In this document: positions 34,559 to 58,271 of the stretch, piece by piece
Layout: the number at the start of each line of letters is the position of its first letter
Position numbering within the stretch: position 1 is the stretch's first letter
Virus genome (UHGV): UHGV-0236300
DNA length: 64,000 nucleotides
Origin: a virus
Strand: one strand, 5' to 3'
Translations under genes and position numbers: made by a program
Notes under the pieces: generated by a model
Told to the model about the DNA's origin: nothing
Databases searched by the model: none
Seen by the model: only the letters and a program-made list of their open reading frames with translations

Positions 34559-34650
34559 ATAGTATCACCTCTGGTAAGAGATGGGGATTCCTTTCCCACA
34601 AATAATTACAAACCTTTCTTGTCGAGGAAAGTATGCTAACCCAAGTAGGA

Positions 34651-34920
34651 TTACTCTTCTACAACCTCATACACATCCGGAGTTACAATCAACTCTTCTC
34701 CGTTACCTGGTGCAACAAACACTACCAAACCTTCCGGTGTGTGCTTTTTAGCCATCTCGATGACATCTTCTCGCAGAGCTGGCTCCATCAGATCAAAACC
34801 TTCACCCAGAGCATCACGAACCACCTTCATGTAGTCAACTGGTTGTGCTTCAACGATCATGCCTTCAACCAGTCCACAGTTTTTGTCTGCCAGCTCAGTT
34901 TGGAATAATTTAATTTTCAT
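34651..34920 (-). CDS. hypothetical acidic protein (paralog family B)
   Basis: MKIKL start and YEVVEE end shared with family B. Confidence 0.55.
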   Translation of the reverse strand: MKIKLFQTELADKNCGLVEGMIVEAQPVDYMKVVRDALGEGFDLMEPALREDVIEMAKKHTPEGLVVFVAPGNGEELIVTPDVYEVVEE

Positions 34921-35063
34921 TTAGAGGTCTCCTCAATTATTTGATATTAATAGCCGTAACCTAACACATTAACTACAACTGCGATTGCAAACATAATTTC
35001 AAAGCATGCAATCTCTACATTTGGGACTAATTTCTTAATCATGCCCATTGTAGCACCTCAATC

Positions 35064-35375
35064 TCAAAAGTCAATCTTTACTTTACCTTTTCCCTTACCT
35101 TTCTTTCCACCGCATTTAGCCAACTGGCGTGCTGCAACATCCACCATACGGTCAGTTGCCTCGTAAGCATCGCTACCTTTAGCTTTGGCGATAACTTCTT
35201 TCCCAGAATTGTCAAAAATGAAAGCCATAACTTCCTGGTGATCATTTTCAACTTTTACACTCACACGTGCATAGTTGGCAGAGGGGTGCAAACGCTCCAG
35301 CTTGGACATTTTGTGGGAAATGAAAGACACCATACCTTCAGTGATCTCTACGTTGCCAGTGATTTCAATCTGCAT
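35064..35375 (-). CDS. hpf: ribosome hibernation promoting factor / RaiA-like protein
   Basis: MQIEITGNVEITEGM...VSVKVEN...AKAKGSDAYEATDRMVDVAARQLAK parallels E. coli HPF MQLNITGNNVEITEAL...; basic C-terminal tail. Confidence 0.8.
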   Translation of the reverse strand: MQIEITGNVEITEGMVSFISHKMSKLERLHPSANYARVSVKVENDHQEVMAFIFDNSGKEVIAKAKGSDAYEATDRMVDVAARQLAKCGGKKGKGKGKVKIDF

Positions 35376-35422
35376 AACGTGCTCCTTTTAAAGAAGAGGG
35401 AACCAAACCCTCTTTGAAAATA

Positions 35423-35451
35423 ATGATACTAAAGATCAAATGTTGTGTCAA
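35423..35451 (-). promoter_or_regulatory. hpf: sigma70 promoter (minus strand, TTGACA-N17-TATCAT) with a 5'-UTR hairpin
   Basis: Minus-strand TTGACA at 35451-35446, TATCAT at 35428-35423; hairpin AGAGGG-N7-CCCTCT (35395-35413) then SD AAGGAG before the hpf ATG. Confidence 0.5.
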
Positions 35452-35457
35452 CAGTTT

Positions 35458-35748
35458 TTACAGCTTGTCGTCGATAGTTTTTAAAATATCCACTGCAAGA
35501 TCTGCCATTTTACGAACATACTCTGCAAACTCAACAGGATCCTTGATCAATGAGTTCACAGGGTCATACCCTAAAGCGTTTAAAATGGCTACAGCATCCA
35601 CAACCTTCTCATCATTTGCGAAGATCTCACCGTCAAACTTGTAAGTCCATTTTGAGTCAATCTTGGCATGGCAGGATTGGTCCATGCTTATTACACCATC
35701 TTTTTTAAACGATTCGGTGTTATCAGTATCCAAAACTAAATCCATCAT
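35458..35748 (-). CDS. hypothetical protein
   Basis: ORF; no motif. Confidence 0.5.
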   Translation of the reverse strand: MMDLVLDTDNTESFKKDGVISMDQSCHAKIDSKWTYKFDGEIFANDEKVVDAVAILNALGYDPVNSLIKDPVEFAEYVRKMADLAVDILKTIDDKL

Positions 35749-35765
35749 GTAAGTACCCCACTATT

Positions 35766-36164
35766 TCAGCTTATCTTTTCTTCAACAACCCCGTAGCTCG
35801 GGGCAGAGTCAAGAGCTTTCTGGTTTAAAAGTGGTGTAGCAGAATCTGCAAACGGTGTCCAGGTTTTTGTTCTGGCATTCCAGTAATGCTTTACTCTGGA
35901 ATCTGGATGCACTATAACAAAAACTTTTTCACTTGTCAACACATTAATTTCTTCTACACCCTTGCTGATAATCTCTCCGTCATAGCCACCAGTCTGGTAT
36001 CCTTCGTACCAGGTTCTTGCATAGGCATAGCCAGCCTGCCAGCATGCAGCCTCCTCCGAGGTGGAGACTACGTAGAAGTCTTTCTCAAATTCGGGGATAC
36101 GCCCTTGCTTTACGCTCCAAGCTCCGCGAATTTTCATTGTAACTTTGAACAGTTTATTTTTCAC
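35766..36164 (-). CDS. hypothetical protein (paralog family C)
   Basis: Paralogous to 33563..33958. Confidence 0.55.
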   Translation of the reverse strand: MKNKLFKVTMKIRGAWSVKQGRIPEFEKDFYVVSTSEEAACWQAGYAYARTWYEGYQTGGYDGEIISKGVEEINVLTSEKVFVIVHPDSRVKHYWNARTKTWTPFADSATPLLNQKALDSAPSYGVVEEKIS

Positions 36165-36176
36165 AACAGTTCCCCA

Positions 36177-36431
36177 TCACAGCTCTAAAATATCTGCATC
36201 TGACCCTGTCCCAAAGGCATAATACGAGTCCTCTCCGAAATAATATTCCGGGGCACCAGCCGCGATCAGGTCTGATCCCAAGATGAACACCACATTGTGG
36301 CCTACATGGCTGTGATTTTGCCGCACAGGATCGTCCCACGGCAACCCTTCGAAGTATACAGCAGGTACTACCTTTCCTTTCAGGAAGGATTGTCCCAAGT
36401 AGACGTTAGAGTCAAGAATTTTAACCTTCAT
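36177..36431 (-). CDS. hypothetical protein (paralog family A)
   Basis: MKVKILD... and GSDLIAAGAPE shared with 36421..36645 and 40069..40302. Confidence 0.55.
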   Translation of the reverse strand: MKVKILDSNVYLGQSFLKGKVVPAVYFEGLPWDDPVRQNHSHVGHNVVFILGSDLIAAGAPEYYFGEDSYYAFGTGSDADILEL

Positions 36432-36645
36432 GATCGTCCTCCACTATCTCCACATCCTCTCCTAGGGCAAAGTTGTAGGTCCACTGACTGTCAAAGCATT
36501 CCTGGGATGCACCAGCGGCAATAAGATCTGCACCTTTTATTTTTAAAAGGTCAGGATAATCTTCGTTAGGGATAGCGGTAAACACTTTCCCCACTAAGGG
36601 CTCCTGACCAATATAGAAGCTTGAATCTAAAACTTTAACTTTCAT
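36421..36645 (-). CDS. hypothetical protein (paralog family A)
   Basis: MKVKVLD... and GADLIAAGAS motif. Confidence 0.55.
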   Translation of the reverse strand: MKVKVLDSSFYIGQEPLVGKVFTAIPNEDYPDLLKIKGADLIAAGASQECFDSQWTYNFALGEDVEIVEDDHEG

Positions 36646-36929
36646 CAGCGGTCTCCATCGGGCGGTTGTGGAACGTAAACACTGTTACGAATCTCGTCAG
36701 CAGTATAGTAACAAGTTTTCCCCTCTCTGTCTCTGGCAGCAATGTATTCAGCTATACCAATAAGTGCCATAGCCTTGGTTGCGTATCTCTTAAGCTCGTT
36801 AGCTCCCCAGCAAAATCTCTGCCAAAACGGTATGAAACCGAATAGGTACACTTTCTGTTTCACTATCCAATAAGTTCCTTTACAGATCACTTTAAACTCT
36901 GCAGCACTATTGCTAACACCATTGCTCAT
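36645..36929 (-). CDS. hypothetical protein
   Basis: ORF coupled to its neighbours. Confidence 0.45.
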   Translation of the reverse strand: MSNGVSNSAAEFKVICKGTYWIVKQKVYLFGFIPFWQRFCWGANELKRYATKAMALIGIAEYIAARDREGKTCYYTADEIRNSVYVPQPPDGDR

Positions 36930-41013: not shown

Positions 41014-41298
41014 CTACCAGGTCACTGTCAAGTAGGCAACTGTGTTATTTTTCTCCGGGGAGATGCCAACAACATCCACCCGCAGACCTCCTGCCCTCAA
41101 ATCCCCAACGATGTGTGGGAAGTAGTCTGAGAGGTGTGATGGAAGATTTATCGAAAATCCGCATCCCAGAAAGCCTGCTAACGCCTTATTTTGTATCTCC
41201 CCTACAATCGCATCATAAATGGAGTTAAGCTCGTCAGGGAGAGTTACAGGACGTTTTAGCGCTAACTGGTGCAACTTGTCCTTAGCACTCATTTTCAT
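41014..41298 (-). CDS. hypothetical protein
   Basis: Track ORF 41014..41367; likelier start is the internal ATG forming an ATGA overlap with the MTase stop. Confidence 0.45.
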   Translation of the reverse strand: MKMSAKDKLHQLALKRPVTLPDELNSIYDAIVGEIQNKALAGFLGCGFSINLPSHLSDYFPHIVGDLRAGGLRVDVVGISPEKNNTVAYLTVTW

Positions 41299-41828
41299 TT
41301 CAAGTCTGCCTCCGGAGGTGCCAACCACATAAATGGTGGTAGGTCTAAACGGTTCTTCTTGTCCCACACAAAATATGCATATGCTTGCCCGTCAGTTCTG
41401 CCATTAGATTGGAATGATGGACGCTTAGATATTGTGATCACAGTGGTAGGGGCATTATCAAGCCACCATTCAAATCTGGCCTTGCTTTCCAGAAAATTAA
41501 GACGCAAAAGCATAATAACTACGTCAGCATCTTTCAACGCCTTGTCCACAAACTCACGAGCCAGGCTGTACGGCGGGTTGGTGATAATACAGTCAACATG
41601 GTTGTATTCCGTATTCAGATAGTCAACACCTTCTTGGATTTCTCCCCATGCAGATCCTAACGGCATACGGGAGTAGAATACACCTGAGGCGCTATTCCTG
41701 CAAGGCTCCAAATAGGTCCAATCTTCTGGGAACGGAATGAGGTTATACAACCCTTCTGCACACCACTCTGGTGTCACATATTCATCATAGGCGTTACGTT
41801 GTTCGTCAGGTTTTCTAGCACAAGTCAT
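41295..41828 (-). CDS. small DNA N6-adenine methyltransferase (phage Dam-like)
   Basis: Catalytic motif IV ITNPPYS; small size (177 aa) as in phage T1-type Dam proteins. Confidence 0.6.
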   Translation of the reverse strand: MTCARKPDEQRNAYDEYVTPEWCAEGLYNLIPFPEDWTYLEPCRNSASGVFYSRMPLGSAWGEIQEGVDYLNTEYNHVDCIITNPPYSLAREFVDKALKDADVVIMLLRLNFLESKARFEWWLDNAPTTVITISKRPSFQSNGRTDGQAYAYFVWDKKNRLDLPPFMWLAPPEADLK

Positions 41829-44751: not shown

Positions 44752-45225
44752 TTAGTCAACCTGAACCCAACCGCCTGCTACCTTTTTAAACATTCTTTGG
44801 TTATCGCTGCCTCGGAATGGTTTCTTTGTTGGTAAATCTTTTACATACTTTCCATCAATGACGATATCAGCCAGTTTAAGAACATCACTAGAGATATGCT
44901 CAAATGTGAACCCAGTATACACAAGAATAGTTTTCTTGTCACCAAACTTTTCCTTAATTCTCCTCATAAGGTCTATAATACCTGGCTCATTATAAGGAGC
45001 CAAAGGCTCTCCACCAAGTAAAGAAATACCGCATACAGATTCATTGTCTAAATCCGACAAAATTTTCTGCAAATCTTCTTCGGTGAACTCCCTTCCTTTA
45101 TCTTTTGACCAAAATGCTTGATTAAAGCAACCAGGACAAGCGTGTGGGCACCCAGATACCCACAAAGCTGTCCTAATGCCTGGCCCCTCGGTGTAAGATA
45201 TCTCTGTATACCCGACAATATTCAT
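44752..45225 (-). CDS. nrdG: anaerobic ribonucleotide reductase activating protein (radical SAM)
   Basis: CPHACPGCFN (CxxxCxxC radical-SAM cluster motif); directly downstream of nrdD; track ORF 44752..45243, start set at MNIVGYT. Confidence 0.8.
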   Translation of the reverse strand: MNIVGYTEISYTEGPGIRTALWVSGCPHACPGCFNQAFWSKDKGREFTEEDLQKILSDLDNESVCGISLLGGEPLAPYNEPGIIDLMRRIKEKFGDKKTILVYTGFTFEHISSDVLKLADIVIDGKYVKDLPTKKPFRGSDNQRMFKKVAGGWVQVD

Positions 45226-45338
45226 ACGTACTCCGCATCGCATTTAGGACAATGCCAAATAAAATCGTCCAGTGCCTTACACCAACGAAGATTGCAATGA
45301 CAACCACACTTGCAAATTTTATAAATACCTGTAGACAT
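45222..45338 (-). CDS. small Cys-rich zinc-ribbon protein (38 aa)
   Basis: ORF below the track cut-off between nrdD and nrdG; SD GGAGGTG; CKCGCHC...CPKC; stop overlaps the nrdG start. Confidence 0.4.
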   Translation of the reverse strand: MSTGIYKICKCGCHCNLRWCKALDDFIWHCPKCDAEYV

Positions 45339-45401: not shown

Positions 45402-47522
45402 TCAGCAACCACAACTTCCGTAGTGCTTAACCCGTTCTATAACCTCAGCCTGCTTACCCTTATTGTAAGGGCGGGAGTTTGGACTAGACAGATACCCGGA
45501 TACGCGTCTGATCACACTGATCGTTCCTTCTTCATGGTTTCCACACTCTGGGCATACAAAGCCTTTAGCTGTTGCACTGAACTCGCCAGAGAATCCACAC
45601 TTAAGACATTTATCCACAGGCTGGTTAATACCAAAATACATAATGTGTTTATACCCGAAATCGACAAGAGCTTCTAAAGCATCTAAGTTGTTTTTCAGGT
45701 TAGGTGTTTCTATGTATCCAATGTTGCCGCCAGAAGAGATCATAGCAAAACCTTCCTCATACTTCCACTTGTCAAAAGGTGAGCTATTGATCCACACGGG
45801 TTGGTGGAAACTGTTGGTAAGGTATTCGTGCTCGTGCTTCAACACTTCAGGATATTCACGATCTAGACATGTTGCAGCCTTATAGCACAAGCTCTCTGAA
45901 GGAGTGCCGTACAAGCTGAATGCCAGACCACTTTCTTTTTTGTACCGATCACAAGCATCTTTCATGTGTTGAAGGATCCCAAGAGCTAAGGACTTGTCTC
46001 CCTCTCTGCCTAAAATCTGGCAGGTTTCATACACACCAATATACCCAATACTTATGGAAGCATACCCGTCATAGAAGAGTTTATCAATACTCTCTTCAGG
46101 ATCCAGGCGAGCAAGGGCCCCTTCACACCACATGATGGGGTTCTGCCCTGCCTTTGTTCCTTTTAGACGGTTAACTCTTACAAGGTGAGCCTCGTATGCC
46201 AGATCCAAGTACTCGTCAAGAACTGCAAAGAAATCAACACCTTCCGTTTTAGCTTTTGCCGCAATCATTGGTAGGTTAAGGCTAACAACACCCAAGTTGA
46301 ATCTGCCAAGGTATTTTTCATCACCCTCCGAGGTAACGTATTTGCCAAGGAACGACCTACATCCCATGCTTGTTACTTTGCCATCTGTTGAACCTGTCAC
46401 TTTACGATTTAGCGGAACAGAAACAAAGTCAGGATAAATCCGCTCTGCAGAGCATTCTAGGGCCAATCGTTTCAAATCATAGTTAGGATCCCCAGGGTTC
46501 ATGTTGACACCATCTTCTAAGAAGAACAGCACTTTAGGGAACACAGGCGTGATCCGTTCTTCACCAAGACCCATTTTGTGGACTTTCAAGTAGTTTTTGG
46601 TAATCATTCTACCAAAGACCGAAGTATCCAGCCCTAAACTTAATGTGATGAATGGGGTTTGCCCGTTGACAGAAGTTAACGTATTGATTTGGTAGAGCAA
46701 AGTTTGCATACTATCAAACACGTCTTTATCGGTCATTTGCATTGCAACAGTCTCAGCATCTGGCAACCAATGTTCCTGACAAAATTTAAGGTTCTTCTCA
46801 TAAGTTGCTTCAGCATATTGTGCCAGATAATGATCAATATGGCTCATAGTTTGACCACCATATTGAGCACTAGCTACTGCACTAGAGATTTGACTAAGGA
46901 TTGTTGTTGCAACCCCTATTGACTTCGGCTTACTGACATGGGCGTTGCCAATGTTGAATCCGTTTTCCAGCATATCCGGATAATTTACCAAACAACAGTT
47001 TGTTAACGGACTGATCAGGTAGTCAAGATCATGCACATGGATGAAGCCCTTGTTGTGCTCTTCTGAGACACGATCTGGCAGGATCTGTGTTGATGCAAGG
47101 TGTTTGCTAAGGATGCCTGCAAGCAGGTCACGATGAGTGTGTACATGATTAGTAGGCTTATTTGCGTTTTCTTTTGTAAATTCATCACAAGTACGATCCA
47201 AAAAGCCACTAATATCTGCAAGCAGTTTTCCACCTGCCTCTCTGTTATTATCTCTTGTCTGTCTATACTGGATGTATTCTCTGGCTGCACATTTTAAACC
47301 CATATCCATAAGAGCATCTTCAACAAGGATATGGATATTTTTTACAGAGATCGTGCACTGGTCGGTTGGCAGATTGTTGGCAACAACTTCATTAACCGCG
47401 CAGGCAATCCGGTAAGCTTCTTCTTCAGTATGCCCAGACTCAAGTAAGGCGGACTCTGCCGCCTTGATCACCTTAATTCCGTTATAAAACTCTTCTCTAC
47501 CGTCCCGTTTTACAACTTTCAC
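45402..47522 (-). CDS. nrdD: anaerobic ribonucleoside-triphosphate reductase (class III)
   Basis: C-terminal zinc site CLKCG...CPECG and glycyl-radical motif RRVSGYL. Confidence 0.9.
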   Translation of the reverse strand: MKVVKRDGREEFYNGIKVIKAAESALLESGHTEEEAYRIACAVNEVVANNLPTDQCTISVKNIHILVEDALMDMGLKCAAREYIQYRQTRDNNREAGGKLLADISGFLDRTCDEFTKENANKPTNHVHTHRDLLAGILSKHLASTQILPDRVSEEHNKGFIHVHDLDYLISPLTNCCLVNYPDMLENGFNIGNAHVSKPKSIGVATTILSQISSAVASAQYGGQTMSHIDHYLAQYAEATYEKNLKFCQEHWLPDAETVAMQMTDKDVFDSMQTLLYQINTLTSVNGQTPFITLSLGLDTSVFGRMITKNYLKVHKMGLGEERITPVFPKVLFFLEDGVNMNPGDPNYDLKRLALECSAERIYPDFVSVPLNRKVTGSTDGKVTSMGCRSFLGKYVTSEGDEKYLGRFNLGVVSLNLPMIAAKAKTEGVDFFAVLDEYLDLAYEAHLVRVNRLKGTKAGQNPIMWCEGALARLDPEESIDKLFYDGYASISIGYIGVYETCQILGREGDKSLALGILQHMKDACDRYKKESGLAFSLYGTPSESLCYKAATCLDREYPEVLKHEHEYLTNSFHQPVWINSSPFDKWKYEEGFAMISSGGNIGYIETPNLKNNLDALEALVDFGYKHIMYFGINQPVDKCLKCGFSGEFSATAKGFVCPECGNHEEGTISVIRRVSGYLSSPNSRPYNKGKQAEVIERVKHYGSCGC

Positions 47523-47800: not shown

Positions 47801-48889
47801 TTAAAACTCCCAAATTTCTTCTTCAGCGTCGTTAACAGTTGTGTTGACGCGGTAGTCAGTGTTAGACATTTCCTGGTTAGCCGTCTGTTGCAGTGAAGGT
47901 TTCATCCACACCTGCATAAACGGTAGCGGGTCTTTTGTTGGCGGCACAAAGTCTTTGTCGATATTGTAGTAATCATAAATCGGTGAGCAGTTATAGTCAA
48001 CCCATTCTTTAAGTAATGGTGAGTTAAGACCTATAATTGCTCTTCCTTCGCTGAAAATATAGTCACTCCAACCGTACTCCTTGATTCGCACTTCGTCAAG
48101 AATTTCTTTTAACTCACCCTTAATCTCAAGAAAGCTTTGCTCCCATGCAGGGTCATCAAGCAGGATATCGATGATAGCAAAATCACCTTTCGAATGCAGC
48201 ATTTCATCAAGCATAATTTTTTGAACGAGTTGTGCAACTTGAACAAAAATACCTTGCTCAGCTACTGCGAACGTACATGCAAAACTTGCAATAAACTCAA
48301 TACTCTCTAGAGCTAAAAGTGCAAAAAGTGCTCTAAGGATACATTTCCGTACAACATCTTCTTCAACACTGGAAGGATCCAGTCGGTATTTTGCACCAAT
48401 AACCTCAAGCTCTTGCATATATTTGACAATAACTCCAGACCTGCTCAGCACGTTCTGGTTTTCCTGAATCTCTTCTATAATCTCACGAGCATTAGGAAGG
48501 CATTGTCTAACAATCTCTGAGTAAGTTAGTGCATGAAGAACCTCAATCTCAGACTGCTTCATCAACAAGGTGAAAAGTTCACTATTGGTGATAAATGGTG
48601 AAAACAGACAAATGATAGATCTTGCTGCAACACTGTCTGCCTCCCATTGCCACATCAGTGTCTGCACCATCACATCGTAAGTTGACTTTGAGCATGTTAC
48701 GAAATCCGAAATAGACTGTGACAGATCTACTTCGTCCTCTGCCCAATCTTGTTCTTTTTGTTTTTTGTATAGTTCAAACAGCTGTGGGTACTTTTTGTTA
48801 ATAGAGTCGTACATCCCCATCTGCTGTCCTAAAAACAGTGGATAATCACCAGTTTTATGAGCAGTGTTCTCAGTATTAAATACAGCCAT
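47801..48889 (-). CDS. nrdB: ribonucleoside-diphosphate reductase beta subunit (class Ia)
   Basis: PLFLGQQ, EIEVLHALTYSE and ALESIEFIASFACTFAVAEQG parallel E. coli NrdB; track start 48979 overlaps nrdA, start set at MAVFNTE after SD. Confidence 0.85.
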   Translation of the reverse strand: MAVFNTENTAHKTGDYPLFLGQQMGMYDSINKKYPQLFELYKKQKEQDWAEDEVDLSQSISDFVTCSKSTYDVMVQTLMWQWEADSVAARSIICLFSPFITNSELFTLLMKQSEIEVLHALTYSEIVRQCLPNAREIIEEIQENQNVLSRSGVIVKYMQELEVIGAKYRLDPSSVEEDVVRKCILRALFALLALESIEFIASFACTFAVAEQGIFVQVAQLVQKIMLDEMLHSKGDFAIIDILLDDPAWEQSFLEIKGELKEILDEVRIKEYGWSDYIFSEGRAIIGLNSPLLKEWVDYNCSPIYDYYNIDKDFVPPTKDPLPFMQVWMKPSLQQTANQEMSNTDYRVNTTVNDAEEEIWEF

Positions 48890-48929
48890 TATTCTACCTC
48901 TAAAATGGGGCCGAAGCCCCTTTTTTAAA

Positions 48930-51245
48930 TTACAGTGCACAACTTTCGCAATATGGATCTTCAACTGAACTATCTGCAATCAAAGGATAGTTCTTTCTGG
49001 TTTCATCTTCAGCCTGTTTCTTCGCGTGAAGCTCCTCTGTCAAAGAGTCACCAGCACCAACCCGAGAGTTTAAGTAATACCATGTCTTCATCCCGAATTT
49101 AGTAGCACGGATAAGATACCCCAGCTGCTCCTTCATTGAAATTTTACCATCTTTCAACTTGGTGTAATCAATATATAGGTCAGCACTGATTGCCTGTCCT
49201 GTGAATTTTTGAATCACAGCATACATATCAATCATGTCGTTAGTATCAACGTCCCAAGCCGAGGTATAATACTCTTTCAGTTCATCATATTCAGGAACGA
49301 TAAACAGCACCTGTCCTTGTGGCGACTTTTTAAAGATAATGTGCTCACGGACAGGATAAACCCCGTTAGTGGTGTTTGTTGCCAGCGAAGAGCTTTCATT
49401 AGGCATATATGCTTCAAGAACGCTATTACGTAGCCCACCATTTTCAATGATTTCTTTACGTAACCCTTCCCAATCCTGCTTAAGAGAAGGATCTTTCACC
49501 ACACTATCGACCTCTTTGTTATAGGTGTCGATTGGTAACCAACCATCCGGGTATTTTGTTTTATGCATCCACTCACAGACACCACGCTCTTTTGCCAATC
49601 GTAAACTTGCCTTATGCAAGCTGTAGCTGTGGAGCTCTGCAAGATCGTGAACAAGCTGTTTACTTTCAGGAGACCCGTAAGCAACCTTGTGGCTGGCAAT
49701 AAAATGTGCAACATTGGTAAGGCCAACCCCGATGGATCTGCGTTTTTTAACAGTGCTCTCCATATTTTCATACGGATATGTCATGATTTCCATAACATTG
49801 TCAATCATAAGCACAGTGTAGTATGCAACATCCTCATACTCCTCTGGGGTAACCCTTCCAGCTACAAGAGATGACAGGAAGCACAATGCAACTTCGCCAT
49901 CATCAACATCGTACTTGAAGATATTACGCATATCTGAATAGCCTTTTGTCGGGAGGGCTATTTCTGCACACAGGTTACTTGAATAGATCACATCTTTAAA
50001 AGGTGTATGTCTATTCATCTCATCTGTCCAGTATACGTACAGCCTGCCAACCTCGGTACGCTGCGTGATCAGTTCAACAGCAAGGTCTCTAGCACGGATC
50101 CATGTTTTAGGAATGCTGTCATCTTTAGCAATACGATCAACCTCTGCATCAAACTCCTCCATAGACATGGTGAAGATACCCTCATGCAGTTGAGGCGCGT
50201 GCTTATAAGAAACAAGCATCCAATCTAAATTCTTAGCCACACGGTTGATAAACGACCTATTAATACCTATAGAGTAATCCATGGTGTTGATTCTTTTTGA
50301 AGCAACAGTCATAGGGTTTCTCAAACGGATTAGCTCATCAATCTGCGGGTCCAGTGCAAGGAATGATACTGTTGCAGAACCGCCACGTGATTGTTGTCTG
50401 TTCTCCTTAACCCCAGCATCAATACCTCGATAATATGGAATCTTGCCCATATGTTTAATAGTGTTACCACGAACACCATCACCTGCAGATCTTGATGATA
50501 AATAGTATCCAATACCTGCTTGGTTAACCGTCATTGTGTATGCAACTTCACGTGCCACACCAATAGATTTTGCTGTATCGTCAGCTTTTATTACACAACA
50601 AGATGCATACCCTGTCTTGCCTGTGCGTAGACCGTTTAAGTACGGTGTCGGGGCATTGATCTTTAAGTCTGACAGATAAGTGTATAATTTTACAACATCG
50701 TCAATACGGCGTTCTTTCGGCATATTTTTCATGACAGCCATCGCTATCCCCATAAACATCATCTGTGGAGATTCGAACAGGGTGTCTTTAAGAGTATCCT
50801 TGATCCCGTATTTGTCTCGAAACTGTTTAAGGACTGCATAGCCATAACCAAGGTCTTTACTGTGATCAATAACAGTGTCTAAAGTGTTTAACTCGGTAAA
50901 GCTATAACCCATATCCTCCCAATACCCTTTATCAACCATGGTATTGTAAAATGATGGTAAGGAAGGGATCTTTGTGAATCCTCCAAAAGCCTCTTTATAA
51001 ATCTGACCGATAAGAACACGACCAGCCATACGAGAATGTGCTTCGTCCTTACGGCTAACACAGGAGTCTATAATAGCTTGGTTAACTTCTTTGGTTGTGC
51101 ATCCATCATACAGCCGTTTGTATGCATCAAGTGCAATATGTGACCAATTGCCGTTACCGTCGTCACCGAAAATAGCTGCCTTATTTAAACGTTCCGGATC
51201 GAATGCCACTTCACATCCGTTGCTTTTAATTACCTTAGTGATCAA
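48930..51245 (-). CDS. nrdA: ribonucleoside-diphosphate reductase alpha subunit (class Ia)
   Basis: N-terminal ATP-cone-like segment, active-site NLCAEI, C-terminal CESCAL cysteine pair. Confidence 0.9.
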   Translation of the reverse strand: MITKVIKSNGCEVAFDPERLNKAAIFGDDGNGNWSHIALDAYKRLYDGCTTKEVNQAIIDSCVSRKDEAHSRMAGRVLIGQIYKEAFGGFTKIPSLPSFYNTMVDKGYWEDMGYSFTELNTLDTVIDHSKDLGYGYAVLKQFRDKYGIKDTLKDTLFESPQMMFMGIAMAVMKNMPKERRIDDVVKLYTYLSDLKINAPTPYLNGLRTGKTGYASCCVIKADDTAKSIGVAREVAYTMTVNQAGIGYYLSSRSAGDGVRGNTIKHMGKIPYYRGIDAGVKENRQQSRGGSATVSFLALDPQIDELIRLRNPMTVASKRINTMDYSIGINRSFINRVAKNLDWMLVSYKHAPQLHEGIFTMSMEEFDAEVDRIAKDDSIPKTWIRARDLAVELITQRTEVGRLYVYWTDEMNRHTPFKDVIYSSNLCAEIALPTKGYSDMRNIFKYDVDDGEVALCFLSSLVAGRVTPEEYEDVAYYTVLMIDNVMEIMTYPYENMESTVKKRRSIGVGLTNVAHFIASHKVAYGSPESKQLVHDLAELHSYSLHKASLRLAKERGVCEWMHKTKYPDGWLPIDTYNKEVDSVVKDPSLKQDWEGLRKEIIENGGLRNSVLEAYMPNESSSLATNTTNGVYPVREHIIFKKSPQGQVLFIVPEYDELKEYYTSAWDVDTNDMIDMYAVIQKFTGQAISADLYIDYTKLKDGKISMKEQLGYLIRATKFGMKTWYYLNSRVGAGDSLTEELHAKKQAEDETRKNYPLIADSSVEDPYCESCAL

Positions 51246-51472
51246 TTTGCTTCCTCCACTTCATCAACGTATTTATCAAGGCAGGTATCAGTATCTTGTT
51301 GGGTAAAGGTATCCTCTTCTACAGAGATATTTATAATTTTACCTGTATACTCGTCATAATAAACATCATCATACATTTTAATATCGTTTGTCAGGCCATT
51401 GAACCAAAGCCAACCAACATATTCTGCCCGACTTGCAAAACCAAGATCCTTCCACTTGGAGTTATGACTCAT
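51242..51472 (-). CDS. hypothetical protein
   Basis: Track ORF 51242..51550; ATG 51472 after SD AAGGTGG is the likelier start. Confidence 0.45.
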   Translation of the reverse strand: MSHNSKWKDLGFASRAEYVGWLWFNGLTNDIKMYDDVYYDEYTGKIINISVEEDTFTQQDTDTCLDKYVDEVEEAN

Positions 51473-51482
51473 CTTCACCACC

Positions 51483-51944
51483 TTAGCTTTCAATACCGAA
51501 TAATTTTTCCAGGAGATGCAGATCTTCAAAATTGAAAGGTTCATCAACAATATGAATATCTTCAGCCTTTTCAGATTGTTTTGTATACTTTCTTACATTA
51601 ACACGATCTTCTACAGGGATATCATATGGAAGATCTTGAACAAGCATTGTCTCACCGGGTGCTTTATCTACATCGAGAATATCTACACCATTATACATTT
51701 GTGGGTATCTAAAGTCTGCACGCATGACACCAGCAAATACATCGGCCTTTCGATAATGAGTTGGTTTATTTTTGCATCTAACGTTTTTTCCACGAAGAAC
51801 ATCAATATTTTTTAAATCAAACCCTACGGCAAAGAGTGCAGCTCGAAGACCGTTTCGTGTGCGAACGTTAAACCCGGGAACGGTAGATAGGAAATCTAAA
51901 GTAACTGAAATAAATGTCTTTTTAGGAATCATAACATCACTCAT
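51483..51944 (-). CDS. hypothetical protein
   Basis: Track ORF 51483..51983; ATG 51944 after SD AAGGGAGA is the likelier start. Confidence 0.5.
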   Translation of the reverse strand: MSDVMIPKKTFISVTLDFLSTVPGFNVRTRNGLRAALFAVGFDLKNIDVLRGKNVRCKNKPTHYRKADVFAGVMRADFRYPQMYNGVDILDVDKAPGETMLVQDLPYDIPVEDRVNVRKYTKQSEKAEDIHIVDEPFNFEDLHLLEKLFGIES

Positions 51945-52042
51945 ATCTGTCTCCCTTTCTGGCTCACCAACAAAGTGAGCCACTATTATAGATTATCTAA
52001 TGCTATTAGTCAACACAAAAGTTACCTATCGCTGTGATAGGC

Positions 52043-53026
52043 TTACCCTTTCATGAAGTGGTTATTAAGCAACTGTCTGTGCTGAACCCACCCACAAAAG
52101 TTGGCAGACCAGAATTTACCATCGCGGTCTTGATGGGTTACACCTTCCTGCCAAACACAACTATCTTGTGTGATTTCACATGAAGACAGGTAGTAGTTTA
52201 AACGTTCCATTGCATTGTCGTGATCCATAGGTGTCGCCTGGTGCTCGTAAGGGCTTGCATGAATACGATCCCCACCAATCAATTTTTTAGCCACACTATC
52301 TGCTTTTTCAAACGTGCTGTCAATATTGCGATAAGATACTTGTGCACAGCAGCTCGCACTAATAGATAGAGCTTCTCCAGTATCGAGAATGCATAGCTTC
52401 CCTTCTGTGTCACGCACAGCATAGTTAAACTCACCGTCCAAATAAACGTGTTCTACATATGGGGTGTGCCATTGACCTGGTTTAAGGACTTCAGGAGTGC
52501 TATTCACAAGAGCCTCCCACATACAATTAGCCAACATCTGAATCGTAGGATCCGCATCGTGCCAGCAACGGAGGTGGAAAAAATTATTCCACTCGGTGCT
52601 TGTTACAACTGTTTTCATGCGTTGAAAAGGTTCCACTAAGCGGTTACATACTTGCTTATGGTAACCAGCAAGGGCGAACTTCTCTGCATGCCAAGCGGCG
52701 TTTTTTGCAGCTTCTTTCCAAAACTCTTCAGGAGTCAGCTCCATGTCAGTGTATTCTACACGGATCTTTTGATCGTGTTCCCCACCATCTTCCATCCCTC
52801 GCTTATTTACACCGAAGCGAACTGGCATTGCCGGATTCTCCACGATCTGCTGCAGCATCTTGCTGACAGGTACTGCACGAGAAGACATAGCGTTTCGGCT
52901 GAACACTCGATGTGTCATAAGCTCTGAGTGAATAATTCGAGGATATTCTAGCTCAAAAGTGGTGATACGCTTACCTTTCTCGGAAATGCTGTCGGCAATA
53001 ATCTTTGCAGTGCACAGTTTTAGCAT
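52043..53026 (-). CDS. thyX: flavin-dependent thymidylate synthase-like protein (ThyX family)
   Basis: ELMTHRVFSRNAMSSRAV parallels the ThyX signature (RHRxxxxxxxS...R), with Thr in place of the first Arg; longer than typical ThyX. Confidence 0.65.
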   Translation of the reverse strand: MLKLCTAKIIADSISEKGKRITTFELEYPRIIHSELMTHRVFSRNAMSSRAVPVSKMLQQIVENPAMPVRFGVNKRGMEDGGEHDQKIRVEYTDMELTPEEFWKEAAKNAAWHAEKFALAGYHKQVCNRLVEPFQRMKTVVTSTEWNNFFHLRCWHDADPTIQMLANCMWEALVNSTPEVLKPGQWHTPYVEHVYLDGEFNYAVRDTEGKLCILDTGEALSISASCCAQVSYRNIDSTFEKADSVAKKLIGGDRIHASPYEHQATPMDHDNAMERLNYYLSSCEITQDSCVWQEGVTHQDRDGKFWSANFCGWVQHRQLLNNHFMKG

Positions 53027-53226
53027 TATTTAGCTCTCCTTGTTTTAATTTTGGAAATTTCGTCTGGGTTTATGTTGGCCTTAAATGCAAGGTATCTGTT
53101 GAACATATCGGAGCACATATCTTGGGTGATCCTAGAGGCATACACCAGCTTACCACCCAGATCATACACCTCTAGCCAGTCACCGTATCTGACTACAGGA
53201 TCGCCACCCTTAGAACATCTGCCCAT
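53026..53226 (-). CDS. hypothetical protein
   Basis: Short ORF coupled to thyX. Confidence 0.45.
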   Translation of the reverse strand: MGRCSKGGDPVVRYGDWLEVYDLGGKLVYASRITQDMCSDMFNRYLAFKANINPDEISKIKTRRAK

Positions 53227-53227
53227 T

Positions 53228-53821
53228 TCAAATACCTTCTAAAAACTTCCCTATTTTATACCAGCTGTTAGCGGTATAGTCAACACTAACCTTCAACTCC
53301 TCGAATTGCTCATAAGGAGTGTCTTTTAAGATTTTAATAACTTCAGGGCGTGAAGCGAATTGGTTCAGGTATTCATGCCTGTCGTCAATTATAACATCTA
53401 CAGCCACATTACCTTTGAAATGTGTGGCGTAGAAGCCGTGACCCTGGGTGTGATCGTCCAGATCCATAAAATCGCTGGTCCAACGCTTTAAGAACCTTGA
53501 TTTAGATGCAAGGTGACCTTTCTTGCATACAGAGATAAATGCAAGCTTGTGACCACGAGCCACCAAATCTTTCATAACCTCAATAGCCCCCTCTTCAGGC
53601 TTAAGAAAGTCGTAGAGGAACGGGTCACTCCAGAAATCAAAAGGTCCTATGATGTTTTCTTTGGGGCGATCAGGCCAATACTTTGACAGATCGTAATACA
53701 TCAGCCCGTTAGAAGGTTTAGCAACTGTCTTGCTGGCTGGACCATATAAACGCTCTAGCCACTCCCACCATGCTGTTCCTGAGTCTACCAGTGTTAAATC
53801 TACATCAATTCCGATCAGCAT
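53228..53821 (-). CDS. HAD-family phosphatase (putative 5'(3')-deoxyribonucleotidase)
   Basis: N-terminal IGIDVDLTLVDS (DxDxT HAD motif I); sits between thyX and a dNMP kinase. Confidence 0.5.
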   Translation of the reverse strand: MLIGIDVDLTLVDSGTAWWEWLERLYGPASKTVAKPSNGLMYYDLSKYWPDRPKENIIGPFDFWSDPFLYDFLKPEEGAIEVMKDLVARGHKLAFISVCKKGHLASKSRFLKRWTSDFMDLDDHTQGHGFYATHFKGNVAVDVIIDDRHEYLNQFASRPEVIKILKDTPYEQFEELKVSVDYTANSWYKIGKFLEGI

Positions 53822-53826
53822 TGTTC

Positions 53827-54429
53827 TCAGACCTCTTTAGCATCAATATACTTGCACACAATCTCAGATGCGCACTCCCAAGGAGACCCCTCAGGGTTAA
53901 CAACATCAAACTCGATACCTTTTATCCCGTTCTTCTCTAGGCTAAGGTAAGTTCTGGAATCATTCCCCCAATCATACCCTGCACGGTGGATACGGAACAG
54001 TAGAAGATCACCACCTGTGCTGTATGCGTACTCGCCAAGGCATGCCAGCTCCTCTTTGAAGCCACCATCGGAGTAAACAACAACCCCTTTACCTTCAGGG
54101 AAATCTTTCTTCAAGGATGCTACTGCGGCCTTACCGAAAGCGTCTTCACCAAAGATAGGTTTAATCAGATTTTCACTACAATGGATCATCCATTCTCGCG
54201 GAGAAACATGCTTGCCGTCTATCATTAAGAACGGGCACGGTTCTTCTTTGTAGCGGCGATCATAGAGTGCATTCCACAACTGTGGTGAAATACCAGCTGC
54301 CTTAATTGCCACACTGAATAGCATTTCCTTTACCTCGCGGTGATGCGAGTTTGGAATGGCTTCCAACAAAAGATCTGCGATATGGTCTTTTCCAGAACTT
54401 GGTGGAGCATTAAGAACAATAATATCCAT
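53827..54429 (-). CDS. deoxynucleoside monophosphate kinase (T4 gp1-like)
   Basis: MDIIVLNAPPSSGKDHIADLL parallels T4 gp1 MKLIFLSGVKRSGKDTTADFI (P-loop). Confidence 0.6.
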   Translation of the reverse strand: MDIIVLNAPPSSGKDHIADLLLEAIPNSHHREVKEMLFSVAIKAAGISPQLWNALYDRRYKEEPCPFLMIDGKHVSPREWMIHCSENLIKPIFGEDAFGKAAVASLKKDFPEGKGVVVYSDGGFKEELACLGEYAYSTGGDLLLFRIHRAGYDWGNDSRTYLSLEKNGIKGIEFDVVNPEGSPWECASEIVCKYIDAKEV

Positions 54430-54632
54430 TAAAAACCTCCGTGGTATTCTTCAACTGCATCAATAATACTTTTACACTTATCTACCAGCTCGTTAGCCAC
54501 TACAGCATCGTCTTCCCAAACAGCCTCCTCAATCTGGTCAAGCAGTGATCGCATCTTTCCCATCATTTCTGGAATAAAGCTTTCTGAAAAGCTGTCTGGG
54601 ATTGTTAACTCTGGTGTCATTGCGGTCTCCAA
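54429..54632 (-). CDS. hypothetical acidic protein
   Basis: Short ORF coupled to its neighbours. Confidence 0.45.
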   Translation of the reverse strand: METAMTPELTIPDSFSESFIPEMMGKMRSLLDQIEEAVWEDDAVVANELVDKCKSIIDAVEEYHGGF

Positions 54633-54647
54633 TCATACTGTGCGTTA

Positions 54648-55088
54648 TTAGAAGTTTGTTTTTACACGTCCCTTTTCATCTACTTCGTTGTTAGCTAAAA
54701 GCGTTACAAAGTCTGTAAAACGAACATGAAGAACTCTTTTCTTATCTAGGTATCCTAAAGCCACACCTGAGAAATTTACCATCAAAGGGGCTAAAGAAGC
54801 TCTGGCACTGAGATGTTGCTGTTCCACTCTTCCAACACCTTTAGTATAAGAAGGGTTGAGATTGTAAGTTCTGAATCCAAGTTTTGTTGGAGCTTTAGAA
54901 TTAAAAACAACTTTATAACGTTTCTTACTCAGCTTATGTTCCAGAATAAGCATCCCCTTTTCACCACGGATAAGCTGAAAATCTGTAAAATGCTCTTTTA
55001 AGACAAAAGGTAGTGCCAGGCCCATAGCCTGCCCCCTTTGCACAGCTGTCTCACCAAAAGCTTTTGCATCAGTAAGCTCTTTAGTCAA
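54648..55088 (-). CDS. hypothetical protein
   Basis: ORF; no motif. Confidence 0.5.
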   Translation of the reverse strand: MTKELTDAKAFGETAVQRGQAMGLALPFVLKEHFTDFQLIRGEKGMLILEHKLSKKRYKVVFNSKAPTKLGFRTYNLNPSYTKGVGRVEQQHLSARASLAPLMVNFSGVALGYLDKKRVLHVRFTDFVTLLANNEVDEKGRVKTNF

Positions 55089-55090
55089 GT

Positions 55091-55882
55091 CTATAGATCA
55101 TACCTGGTCTCCAAAATGTATTGTAGTTCTTTCTTGCCTATACTCTTCATTCCAGCAGTCTTACCTGCTTCTTCTTGAAAAGAAGAATAGCATTCAGCAA
55201 ACACTCTGTCAACACCGTCAACTAAAGATTTTATGAAATATGTTGATTCTTCAGATTTTGGGTCATCATCCCCCAATACTTTTCCAGCATTATACCCAAC
55301 ACGTCTTATGCAGAAGTCGTAGTCATCTGGTGTACTAAAAGAAAATAGCTTATTCTCCCCAATCTCTACAGGATCCCTATTGCACACCTTTTTCTCCCAA
55401 ATTTGGAAAACACATGGCACGTCATAAGGTTTGCCGTTGAGTAAAAACGAGTTCTTGGGGCACCTTTCACTGTAAATAAGGTGCATCGACATGTCCAGTT
55501 TGTTTGCAAAAAATATTTTTTCAAATGTCCGTGGCAAGATGAAGGCTATAGCCCCACCAGGCTCTAGCAATGATGCGCAGTGGTTAAAAAACTTGCAAGC
55601 TAAAGACGAATTTTTGCCGAATGGGGGATTACCTATGAAGACATCAGCCTTAGGGTACACCTCTAAGAAGTCTGCCTTAATACACGGTGTTGGGCCTTCA
55701 AATTCAGGATCTGGTACCAAATCGTACGACAGTATCTCTGAAAATAGTTTTGAAAAAGAACCCTTTCCAGCAGAAGGCTCAACGTATGCACAACTCCCAT
55801 ACTTACCTTTTACTTTACCAACAAGATATTCTGCATACTCAGGGTCTGTGTAATATTTGTCGTTGGACTCTTTCTTGCTCAA
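55091..55882 (-). CDS. DNA N6-adenine methyltransferase (gamma-class)
   Basis: YYTDPEYAEYLV, motif I VEPSAGKGSF before motif IV IGNPPFG (gamma order). Confidence 0.7.
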   Translation of the reverse strand: MSKKESNDKYYTDPEYAEYLVGKVKGKYGSCAYVEPSAGKGSFSKLFSEILSYDLVPDPEFEGPTPCIKADFLEVYPKADVFIGNPPFGKNSSLACKFFNHCASLLEPGGAIAFILPRTFEKIFFANKLDMSMHLIYSERCPKNSFLLNGKPYDVPCVFQIWEKKVCNRDPVEIGENKLFSFSTPDDYDFCIRRVGYNAGKVLGDDDPKSEESTYFIKSLVDGVDRVFAECYSSFQEEAGKTAGMKSIGKKELQYILETRYDL

Positions 55883-55928
55883 AGTGCCTCCAAAAATGAA
55901 AAGGGAGGCGCAAGCCTCCCTCTACTTG

Positions 55929-56912
55929 TCAGATTATCTGAATCAGGGTGTTTTTCATCTCTTCTCTGGTACGGATGTTGTTACGATCACGAACAACAGA
56001 TCCACAACCTTCGCAGCGGTATGTTTTAAATGCACTCAGCTGAGTATACGCCAAAGCTTCTTCCTCGTGAAGGTGTTCTCCACCACAACGTGGGCAACGA
56101 ACTTTTGACTCCTCATCTTGGTAGTACAATGACATGTTAGGGTGCTGCTTGGCAAACGGACGCGCCAGCAAATACAGGCCTTCCAGAGACAAGATGTCCC
56201 CAACATTATACTCCCGCATCTGTTTAAACGCCTCAAGATCACCATGAACACACTTGATCCACATTTCAAATGTGTGGTCAATCAGCTTCTGTCGGGCCAG
56301 TTGGAAGTATTTACATGCATACTCTAACGTGTTTGCATTCAAACGGAATGCCTTTTTAATCATCTTGAGGGTGTCAACCTCTTTGTATGGACTTGTTGGC
56401 GGCAAACCGTGAAATGCAAATCGTTGGTTGGCCCACCCACAGTCAAAACCAGAGTTGTGCGCTACTGCGACATCACATTTATCCAGATAATACCACAAAT
56501 CTTGAATCAGTTCAAGATCGTTGTGGATATCCTCGCCCCACATTTTGTAATCGGGAAGAGCACAGTCAACCACGCTAGGGCTGTCTAACCATTTACCTGC
56601 GAAAGTTAGCATATAAGGCATAATTTCAATACCGCAGGTTTGAATGTTGGTCTTATAGTGCCCAAAGAACCAGCCGTTTGTTGGGGATGTCTCTGTATCA
56701 TACACCCAAACTTTAGCGCCCTTGTGTTCTTCAAGGAAGCGCTCCGTTGCCTCCCCTACAATCTCTGACATATTCTCTTGTGCACGTTTAAGCTGTAGCC
56801 GGATCCAGCTCTCACGTGACTCACGACCTAAAAATTCACGAGCAATCTGTCTATTAGTGTATCCCTGTTGCTTTAGTGTTAAAATTTGCTCAAGAGTTAA
56901 CTTTGTCATCAT
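55929..56912 (-). CDS. DEDDy-type 3'-5' exonuclease with N-terminal HTH-like and C-terminal zinc-ribbon segments
   Basis: Exo I VWVYDTETS, Exo II AHNSGFD, Exo III YNVGD; C-terminal CPRCGG...CEGCG. Confidence 0.7.
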   Translation of the reverse strand: MMTKLTLEQILTLKQQGYTNRQIAREFLGRESRESWIRLQLKRAQENMSEIVGEATERFLEEHKGAKVWVYDTETSPTNGWFFGHYKTNIQTCGIEIMPYMLTFAGKWLDSPSVVDCALPDYKMWGEDIHNDLELIQDLWYYLDKCDVAVAHNSGFDCGWANQRFAFHGLPPTSPYKEVDTLKMIKKAFRLNANTLEYACKYFQLARQKLIDHTFEMWIKCVHGDLEAFKQMREYNVGDILSLEGLYLLARPFAKQHPNMSLYYQDEESKVRCPRCGGEHLHEEEALAYTQLSAFKTYRCEGCGSVVRDRNNIRTREEMKNTLIQII

Positions 56913-56924: not shown

Positions 56925-57146
56925 TTAGTAAAACTGAAGAATGTCTTTTAAAGCGAAGTCACGATATTCGCCCTTGTCTACATCAAATGCATGCATCAAC
57001 CACTGATCTTCTTTATGATAATCTGTAGAGCCAAACCATAAACTAGGCTCAGTAACGCAGCGATCTGCAACAACACCTTTCCAGTTACGGTATTTCATCC
57101 TGATCAGAACTGAATCGCAAGGATTGAATACCTTTTTCATCTCCAT
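56925..57146 (-). CDS. hypothetical protein
   Basis: Short ORF overlapping the endonuclease VII 3' end; start probably internal. Confidence 0.4.
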   Translation of the reverse strand: MEMKKVFNPCDSVLIRMKYRNWKGVVADRCVTEPSLWFGSTDYHKEDQWLMHAFDVDKGEYRDFALKDILQFY

Positions 57147-57690
57147 AGAAATCTCTCTCCTCAGTTTTCTTTATAAACTCCTGCATGTAGGCCTCAATAG
57201 CCTCATGCTTGGTATACTCTGAATTAATGACAAGATCTAGATCCGATTCTGCCCGTGCAATAATCGTAGCTTTAGAGCATCTCCTCAAGAACTTTGTCAT
57301 ATCGTCCCTGTAGTTTTTGTGGAGCGGGAAGTCGCTGTAGTCTTTCTCCAGATAGTCAGCCATCCGGCGCAACGCCTCTGATAAACTGCAATCTGTATAC
57401 TCGTTACAGTATTTCATCCAGTATTTAAGCACATACCCCTCAAAGGTATTAGTGCATTGGGACAAAACACCCCTGCAACGACCAGTCAGATGATCATGAT
57501 CTAAACAAGGCTTACGAAGTGGTTCGCACAAGATCGGATCAAGACCATCCTGCTCTTCTGACAATTCTTTCCGAAAGTTAGCTATGTCCTTAGAATCTTT
57601 TAGCCACCCGCTATGAACGGGGGCTTTGACAGCTTTCTTTCTTATTTTACGCTTTGCGATAATCCCTCCAGATGCGCCCTGCCTATCCAA
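57085..57690 (-). CDS. endonuclease VII-like junction-resolving enzyme
   Basis: CLDHDHLTGRCRGVLSQCTNTFEG parallels the T4 gp49 zinc/active-site segment HLDHDHELNG...RGLLCNLCN..EG. Confidence 0.75.
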   Translation of the reverse strand: MDRQGASGGIIAKRKIRKKAVKAPVHSGWLKDSKDIANFRKELSEEQDGLDPILCEPLRKPCLDHDHLTGRCRGVLSQCTNTFEGYVLKYWMKYCNEYTDCSLSEALRRMADYLEKDYSDFPLHKNYRDDMTKFLRRCSKATIIARAESDLDLVINSEYTKHEAIEAYMQEFIKKTEERDFYGDEKGIQSLRFSSDQDEIP

Positions 57691-58271
57691 TAAGCATCTG
57701 CGAGATCGGCCTTACCTTGTACCAAATTGATCCCATCTAGGAACCCCGGTTCAGATACTTCGCAGGCCTTAACCATCAACTTTTTATCCATCGTAACAGG
57801 TTTCTTCACAGTAAGCTCCTTACCTGTCCTTTTGTCAAGCTTTTTCTTCTCCTCAAAAGCAAGTTCTTCAGGAAGATGACTACGAGCAAACTTTTTGGCA
57901 GTTGTTGGTGTCACTGTGTGAACCTTAAACAGGCCGTCATTTTCACAATCTGCTAAAGCATCCCAAAGCATAACTTCAAGACCGTAAAACAACCCAGCCA
58001 GTTCACGTGTGGCATCTCCTCGCGATCCGAAGGAGAGCCCTTCCATAACCACGGTGTCAACGCCGTGCGTGTGGATATAATATCTAACCTGTTTGCAGAT
58101 CCAGTCAATACGCTCAGCAGCTGTTGCAAAAGAAACCGTCCCTGGTTTCTTCTCTTTTGCAGACGAGCTTTGGGTTCGTAACACAACCTTATGAACAGGC
58201 CTACCATCGTCCCATACAACGCAGGCAGTGTGGGTAAGAGACTGGTCTATAGACAGCAGTCTTTCTCTCAT
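57642..58271 (-). CDS. putative RuvC-like Holliday junction resolvase
   Basis: N-terminal LSIDQSLTHTACVV (RuvC-like Asp motif) and VVMEGLSFGS...ATRELA (Glu motif); weak, by eye. Confidence 0.4.
   Translation of the reverse strand: MRERLLSIDQSLTHTACVVWDDGRPVHKVVLRTQSSSAKEKKPGTVSFATAAERIDWICKQVRYYIHTHGVDTVVMEGLSFGSRGDATRELAGLFYGLEVMLWDALADCENDGLFKVHTVTPTTAKKFARSHLPEELAFEEKKKLDKRTGKELTVKKPVTMDKKLMVKACEVSEPGFLDGINLVQGKADLADAYWIGRAHLEGLSQSVK

Follow-up and report, generated by a model that had tools for sequence, protein, structure and literature searches.

Positions 52,043 to 54,429 of a 64,000-nucleotide stretch of UHGV virus genome UHGV-0236300 (the window, meaning this stretch at its full length) encode a protein of 327 amino acids (aa) resembling the flavin-dependent thymidylate synthase ThyX, together with a deoxynucleoside monophosphate (dNMP) kinase-like protein and a HAD phosphatase. 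The locus raises the question whether such a set of genes supplies plain thymidylate (dTMP) or produces a noncanonical pyrimidine nucleotide. In the first-pass annotation, which was made from the letters of the sequence, the choice was held to be undecidable from sequence alone, and it was remarked that the protein is long and that its signature reads THR for RHR. Length and signature are not oddities of the locus hinting at new chemistry, since both proved to be constant in a very large subfamily of ThyX from phages, which includes the protein of phage N4, and the 327-aa protein most likely makes plain dTMP as a flavin-dependent thymidylate synthase. The cluster is read with good confidence as a deoxynucleotide-supply module of an rV5-like (Vequintavirinae) coliphage. 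What is new lies at the level of the subfamily, since a permuted, Arg78-less form of ThyX, as predicted from sequence, is widespread in phages.

Segment order and active-site residues of the ThyX-like protein

Assignment of the protein to the ThyX family with a THR signature, as in the first-pass annotation, is borne out by the open reading frame (ORF), by Pfam Thy1 (PF02511; 38.5 bits against a cut-off of 24.8, profile positions 60-190 only) and by HMMER alignment. The protein also matches phrog_85 'thymidylate synthase' (1e-112), and its structural matches identify the ThyX fold, with PolB (PDB 4P5A) among the top ones. A direct search against PDB sequences gave no match and a profile search against the PDB reached Thermotoga maritima ThyX at E ~0.2 only; because these searches were near-empty, fold and profile-profile methods were needed. 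Both Pfam Thy1 and NCBIfam TIGR02170 match the protein from profile position 60 on, over residues ~22-180.

For a closer comparison, a few real ThyX proteins of the short phage type were aligned to give a canonical profile. Residues 12-195 correspond to canonical positions 59-226 (profile-profile probability 96%, E 3.7e-9) and residues 214-274 (ISASCCAQVSYR...HASPYEH) to the canonical N-terminal segment 22-78 (ARVSY...HxSPFEH; 93.5%, E 2.4e-7), which means that the N-terminal helical segment stands after the core and the canonical order is not kept. When residues 199-262 were placed in silico before residues 19-198, the Pfam Thy1 score rose from 39.0 to 51.0 bits and its coverage from positions 60-190 to 15-190, and the TIGR02170 score from 40.5 to 53.8 bits with a coverage of 20-208, still below the cut-off of 87.9; the identical pieces in native order gave a partial profile match only. 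An internal duplication was rejected, as the C-terminal part compared with the N-terminal part reached an hhalign probability of 0.3%, and the C-terminal 149 residues alone had no Pfam Thy1 match. The extra length would hence consist of the relocated segment and a tail, with no second copy of the core; in this tail N309, Q315 and R317 are invariant in 132 representatives of clusters at 50% identity. Great length and weak family scores are thus explained by an N-terminal ThyX segment that has moved behind the catalytic core.

The signature, MTHRVFSRNAMSSRA, does not follow the canonical pattern RHRx7S(xR). In THRVFSRNAMSSR the canonical first Arg (R78) is replaced by Thr, and the His, the second Arg, the Ser and the final Arg are retained. 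Aligned to T. maritima ThyX with HMMER, T38 corresponds to R78, H39 to H79, R40 to R80, S48 to S88, R50 to R90 and R153 to R174, in the T. maritima numbering, which agrees with mutant names in the PDB. Thr38 shows no variation among 31 relatives and is shared by 127 of the 132 cluster representatives, the others having Arg (three) or Lys (two). Because of this constancy across relatives and representatives it is not a sequence error, and through the rare members with Arg or Lys at position 38 the THR signature grades into RHR within the same subfamily.

Other residues of the presumed active site are conserved as well. H39, R50, R153 and H256 are kept in all 132 representatives, S48, R129 and H262 in 131 and E261 in 126; A51, G77-M78, H123-K124-Q125, H187, P189, S231 and S258 are likewise invariant or nearly so. 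In the profile alignment R129, practically invariant, falls no more than one residue away from the R147 position; it belongs to an NRxxEP motif where canonical ThyX has ARxxLP, and HASPYEH aligns to the canonical HxSPFEH, the His53 loop. Counterparts of both Arg residues that bind the phosphate and the uracil of deoxyuridylate (dUMP), R147 and R174 in T. maritima, and of the His53 loop are accordingly present.

In T. maritima ThyX, Arg78 is described as directed at N1/C2=O of the reduced flavin, stabilising FADH- (PMC11940539). From conservation, R30, K124 and R317 are candidates for its role in the long form. A loss of the tail residue R317 in the rare members with Arg at position 38, which would suggest compensation, was looked for and not seen, R317 being found in 132 of 132. 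Absence of the first Arg extends to phage ThyX of ordinary length, several of which have KHQ, KHK or KYV for RHR (Yersinia phage PYps3T, Rheinheimera phage Barba26S, Escherichia phage EcM-vB1, Roseobacter phage SIO1, Alteromonas phage R8W and Bacillus phage Glittering). As far as sequences tell, the first Arg of the textbook RHR motif is often missing in phage enzymes, and the motif appears looser than usually stated.

Compared with canonical ThyX (T. maritima TM0449, PBCV-1 A674R and the enzymes of Mycobacterium tuberculosis and Helicobacter pylori; PF02511, TIGR02170), the protein of the window is thus core-first, has ~100 extra residues including the conserved C-terminal tail, carries Thr for Arg78 and belongs to an essentially phage-only group.

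Distribution of the long form and evidence bearing on its function

The window derives from a Vequintavirinae (rV5/FV3-like) Escherichia coli myophage and is about 97% identical to more than 100 sequenced genomes. Over its bases 51000-56000, 123 phage records show an identity of 94-98%, among them FV3 and the BASEL phages EduardKellenberger and RudolfGeigy. The locus is ordinary and already annotated, and the phage group to which it belongs has been sampled well. Some 20 records under the name 'Campylobacter phage' (MG065653, MG065661, MG065672 and others) share 90-100% identity with rV5-like phages of E. coli at the locus, and 'Campylobacter phage C14' has a HAD protein 100% identical; these records are probably mislabelled or contaminant sequence and not a real host jump.

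Beyond this group, a word-indexed search retrieved more than 7,500 homologues, of which the best 120 are almost all 313-347 aa long, many on phage-sized contigs of ~130-150 kb, and an exhaustive profile search yielded 5,534 clusters at 50% identity (3,423 below 1e-30). By tblastn the long-form gene was detected in 1,036 phage records. Carriers comprise Vequintavirinae, Phapecoctavirus, Justusliebigvirus, Vibrio phage ICP1, Pakpunavirus, Otagovirus, N4-like Schitoviridae, phiCbK and Flavobacterium phages; gp30 of N4 is a member at 41% identity (E 7e-78) and shows MTHRALNRNASSSRA. Among 185,579 bacterial and archaeal species genomes only 17 long-form loci were encountered, mostly on contigs of metagenome-assembled genomes, in a scan with two exact peptide patterns that says little beyond 'rare in cells'. 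The subfamily, as delimited by these searches, appears essentially confined to phages.

Two observations on its range may be added. The long-form gene occurs in the cultured isolates Kineosporia rhizophila JCM 9960 (39%) and Moraxella caviae CCUG 355 (46% identity). Metagenomic relatives of 520-680 aa (P0126, P0135, P0138, P0150, P0160 and others) contain the long-form ThyX-like unit twice in tandem; if evolution proceeded through duplication and truncation, fused dimers of this sort are the intermediates to be expected.

In the complete genome of the relative HMD-6, the ThyX-like gene is the only candidate for a thymidylate synthase. A tblastn search with E. coli ThyA returned noise in the window and in HMD-6 (E above 1.9), ThyA together with eight short phage ThyX queries revealed no other synthase in either (best E 0.19), and no ThyA or short ThyX gene is annotated in HMD-6. 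The 166-aa ORF at 51483-51983 (minus strand) was considered as a second synthase and rejected, being without Pfam, NCBIfam or PDB similarity. It belongs to phrog_5557 (unknown function), and the label 'thymidylate synthase' which it bears in the GenBank entries of HMD-6, ECP26 and VB-EcoM-WM was probably transferred to it from the neighbouring gene in error. No dihydrofolate reductase was found among the annotated genes, which fits a flavin-dependent enzyme, as this type of thymidylate synthase produces no dihydrofolate.

The surroundings of the gene are those of deoxynucleotide synthesis in several unrelated groups. It lies next to nrdA/nrdB in rV5-like phages, Pakpunavirus and Phapecoctavirus, within ~3 kb of nrdA in ICP1, and near the gene for dCTP deaminase, an enzyme that feeds dUMP production, in N4 and Gamaleyavirus; in roseophage relatives the long-form gene is paired with a dCMP deaminase (PMC2784036). 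An exchange in situ is seen between the Rheinheimera phages Barba26S and Barba8S, which share 99.3-99.4% identity on either side of the gene, right up to its borders. At this site, flanked in both by glutaredoxin and reductase genes, Barba26S has a short ThyX of 222 aa and Barba8S a long form of 303 aa (NTHR...SSR). Two unrelated versions of 'thymidylate synthase' in Barbavirus had been noted by the authors of these genomes (PMC6715854).

Gene array around the ThyX-like gene

The four ORFs of the cluster stand end to end on the minus strand (Table 1). Towards lower coordinates the ThyX-like gene is followed by two small ORFs, nrdA, nrdB, glutaredoxin, nrdD and nrdG, with nrdA ~800 bases downstream in the same array; at higher coordinates the cluster is preceded by a pair of small ORFs and by a methyltransferase of the N6-adenine type, which has an NPPF motif.

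Table 1. Features of the window discussed in the text (positions in the 64,000-nucleotide stretch).
Feature	Position	Strand	Evidence
ThyX-like gene, long-form, predicted segment-permuted, 327 aa, THR signature	52043-53026	-	ORF, Pfam, phrog_85
66-aa ORF, unknown function, between ThyX-like and HAD genes	53026-53226	-	phrog_4903 (unknown function) 6e-35; hypothetical in relatives
HAD phosphatase, NT5C 5'(3')-deoxyribonucleotidase type, 197 aa	53228-53821	-	Pfam NT5C, motifs
P-loop dNMP kinase-like protein of 200 aa with a T4 gp1-like fold	53827-54429	-	phrog_139, AlphaFold2 model
nrdA, class I ribonucleotide reductase large subunit	48930-51245	-	ORF; nrdA label in all close relatives
nrdB, ribonucleotide reductase small subunit	47801-48979 (mechanical ORF)	-	Pfam Ribonuc_red_sm 101 bits
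NrdD, anaerobic ribonucleotide reductase	45402-47522	-	Pfam NRDD 537 bits
NrdG, NrdD activase	44752-45243	minus-strand array	Pfam Fer4_12 and Radical_SAM
'C5-MTase-like' (C5-methyltransferase-like) ORF, 264 aa, between helicase-module genes and primase/helicase gene	6455-7249	+	motifs, phrog_757

The presence of a dNMP kinase and a HAD phosphatase next to the ThyX-like gene, and of a C5-MTase-like protein elsewhere, had been claimed before and holds. The kinase had no match in the Pfam scan and falls into phrog_139 'dNMP kinase' (3e-43), with the P-loop residues G13 and K14 invariant. Its AlphaFold2 model (pLDDT 90.8) has T4 gp1 as the best structural match with Foldseek, ahead of adenylate kinases (1DEK, chains A and B; TM 0.63-0.64, E 1e-6 to 3e-6). 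Both are small phage P-loop kinases with 14-15% identity, and as no sequence-level or profile match to 1DEK was obtained in the PDB, phrog_139 is the only sequence link. In T4, gp1 serves the hydroxymethyl-dCMP pathway; evidence for such a pathway was not found in the window. The HAD protein matches Pfam NT5C (PF06941) at 27.1 bits against a cut-off of 24.8, and its translation contains GIDVDLT at residues 4-10 (motif I, DVDLT) and an acidic IIDD near residue 145. With the mammalian cytosolic and mitochondrial deoxyribonucleotidases (NT5C) it shares the Pfam match, weak at 27 bits, the DxDxT motif and the acidic motif; its own family, phrog_420, is listed as 'unknown function'.

Homologues of the kinase occur in ~1,500 phage records, including T1-like and Webervirus-type siphophages of ~50 kb, and homologues of the HAD protein in 701, with the kinase as neighbour also in ICP1 and the Vibrio phages K408/F97. 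Both look like general pool-management genes.

The C5-MTase-like ORF shows FDGSGG, PPCT and ENP motifs, matches phrog_757 'DNA methyltransferase' (6e-87) and is labelled 'DNA cytosine methyltransferase' in HMD-6; the Pfam scan gave no match, and the C5-MTase label is based on motifs and the annotation of others. A further ORF at 3833-5176 (plus strand), between a helicase gene and small ORFs of the replication module, encodes an N6_N4 DNA methylase of 447 aa (Pfam 147 bits). HMD-6 has two short hypothetical ORFs in its place, and the methylase looks like a strain-variable insertion. Together with those at 41295-41828 and 55091-55882, the window thus has four methyltransferase-like genes, yet its phage group is reported to be restriction-sensitive.

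Among the reductase genes, the true start of nrdB is probably ~90 bases further in than that of the mechanical ORF, the product in HMD-6 having 362 aa. The nrdD gene is an intact ORF of 706 aa in the window and is split into two coding sequences in HMD-6 (33946-36831), where a gene for an HNH homing endonuclease interrupts it; this endonuclease gene is present or absent depending on the strain. Upstream of the cluster, an endonuclease VII-family ORF (57085-57690; Pfam 31.7 bits) overlaps by ~50 bases with the end of a 209-aa ORF called 'RNaseH' in relatives (57642-58271), both on the minus strand. Its mechanical start is probably too far upstream, and HMD-6 has no annotated gene there.

Thymidylate or another product

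The earlier annotation regarded the gene set as fitting either dTMP supply or a noncanonical pyrimidine. The former is now favoured and the latter disfavoured, and on the available evidence the choice can largely be made. Plain dTMP supply is favoured because the mapped dUMP-binding residues R40, S48, R50 and R153 and the His loop are kept, because the gene is the sole synthase candidate and is linked to ribonucleotide reductases and dCTP deaminase, because in Barbavirus the long form replaces a short ThyX in situ, and because the phage group is reported to be restriction-sensitive. The BASEL Vequintavirinae, which carry the ThyX-like gene at 95-98% identity, reportedly lack effective protection against restriction-modification systems, to which they are 'exceptionally susceptible' (PMC8594841).

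In the pathway that we infer, the ThyX-like enzyme would convert dUMP and methylene-tetrahydrofolate into dTMP with flavin adenine dinucleotide as methylene carrier and reductant. The N-terminal helical segment with the counterpart of the folate-stacking His53 would lie behind the core, to which a conserved tail of ~65 residues is added. The T4-gp1-like kinase would phosphorylate dTMP, like other dNMPs, to the diphosphate, and the dNMP pools would be trimmed or balanced by the NT5C-type phosphatase. Deoxyribonucleotides would come from the ribonucleotide reductases, aerobic and anaerobic, that are encoded next to these genes.

Several points weigh against this account. The protein misses the equivalog cut-off of TIGR02170 (40.3 against 87.9 bits), and by extension of the HMMER alignment E35, A46 and A51 replace Gln75, Glu86 and Tyr91 of canonical ThyX; with Arg78 exchanged for Thr and these neighbours changed, the flavin chemistry could differ. 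The permutation rests on profile comparisons, from which it is deduced that the moved segment would match the canonical N-terminal one in three dimensions as well. The short ThyX of Barba26S itself has KHK and not RHR. Restriction sensitivity speaks against bulky hypermodification and is compatible with a small change such as 5-hydroxymethyluracil. Finally, a literature search for a characterised long-form ThyX, N4 gp30 included, retrieved no assay or structure.

It is the changes at Arg78, Gln75, Glu86 and Tyr91, around the flavin and the substrate loop, that would give room to a noncanonical product, for example 5-hydroxymethyl-dUMP formed by capture of water at the exocyclic methylene intermediate. 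If the hydride step were impaired for want of the FADH--stabilising Arg78, the kinase could activate the product and the phosphatase remove the canonical competitor, a scheme which, like the product itself, we consider improbable. The failed equivalog threshold would agree with it, a kinase beside a nucleotidase is the type of pairing known from base-replacement pathways, and weak homologues of the HAD protein (24% identity, E 4e-5) are present in Vi01-like phages, which carry hypermodified thymidine. The pathways for hydroxymethylcytosine in T4, hydroxymethyluracil in SPO1 and hypermodified thymidine in ViI/M6 have superficially the same parts, namely a C5 one-carbon transferase for a pyrimidine dNMP, a dNMP kinase and a nucleotide phosphatase. 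However, they employ ThyA-family hydroxymethylases together with enzymes destroying the canonical nucleotide, and often transferases acting on DNA. The window has no ThyA match, the annotation of the cluster names no enzyme that would exclude the canonical nucleotide and no transferase or modifying enzyme acting on DNA of the type found in such pathways, and dCTPase, dUTPase and dTTPase are lacking among the annotated genes, where absence based on annotation is weak evidence. Of two marks of base replacement, neither a ThyA-family hydroxymethylase (or an equivalent proven modifying enzyme) with an enzyme removing the canonical nucleotide nor, from the literature only, virion DNA that resists restriction or has a replaced base was found. 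T1-like phages commonly have a kinase of this family, the uracil-contacting Arg (R153, equivalent to R174) is invariant, and the subfamily is spread over the 1,036 phage records in many unrelated groups; no report of base modification in long-form carriers such as N4 or ICP1 is known to us. Near-identical genomes of Barbavirus phages infecting the same host strain, in which the long form and a short ThyX are swapped, point the same way, as does the exceptional restriction sensitivity of Vequintavirinae (PMC8594841). A literature search for nucleoside analyses of Vequintavirinae DNA returned nothing direct.

Still less likely is a ThyX fold put to another use, be it as a methylase of UMP, as in PolB, or of dCMP, or as a flavin- or nucleotide-binding protein without thymidylate synthesis. 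PolB, the UMP/dUMP C5-methylase of polyoxin biosynthesis in Streptomyces cacaoi, is likewise a divergent enzyme of this fold, but it has the canonical segment order and stands in an antibiotic gene cluster, whereas the protein of the window stands in a phage deoxynucleotide module, and no sequence-level relationship between the two was detected beyond the shared fold. The residues contacting phosphate and uracil are strongly conserved and fit a dUMP site, the neighbours are genes of deoxynucleotide synthesis (reductases, dCTP deaminase, dNMP kinase) and not of antibiotic synthesis or RNA modification, and a dUMP enzyme is likewise in keeping with the exchange in Barbavirus. The purifying selection seen across more than 5,500 clusters speaks against a protein that has lost its function.

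With plain dTMP synthesis as the preferred reading, a wider proposition concerns the permuted, Arg78-less subfamily as a whole. It could carry out a different C5 one-carbon transfer, stopping for instance at 5-hydroxymethyl-dUMP, or use another reductant or flavin chemistry. We give this little credence; if true, many well-studied phages would contain a DNA base that has gone unrecognised, or an enzyme with a new mechanism.

For an rV5-like phage the result points to a nucleotide-supply module and not to a hidden DNA-modification pathway. At the level of the family, thousands of phage genes called 'thymidylate synthase' belong to a rearranged ThyX subfamily without the Arg described as stabilising the reduced flavin, and the function of this subfamily bears on the annotation of more than 1,000 phage genomes. 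How ThyX tolerates the loss of Arg78 matters beyond phages, as ThyX is pursued as an antibacterial target.

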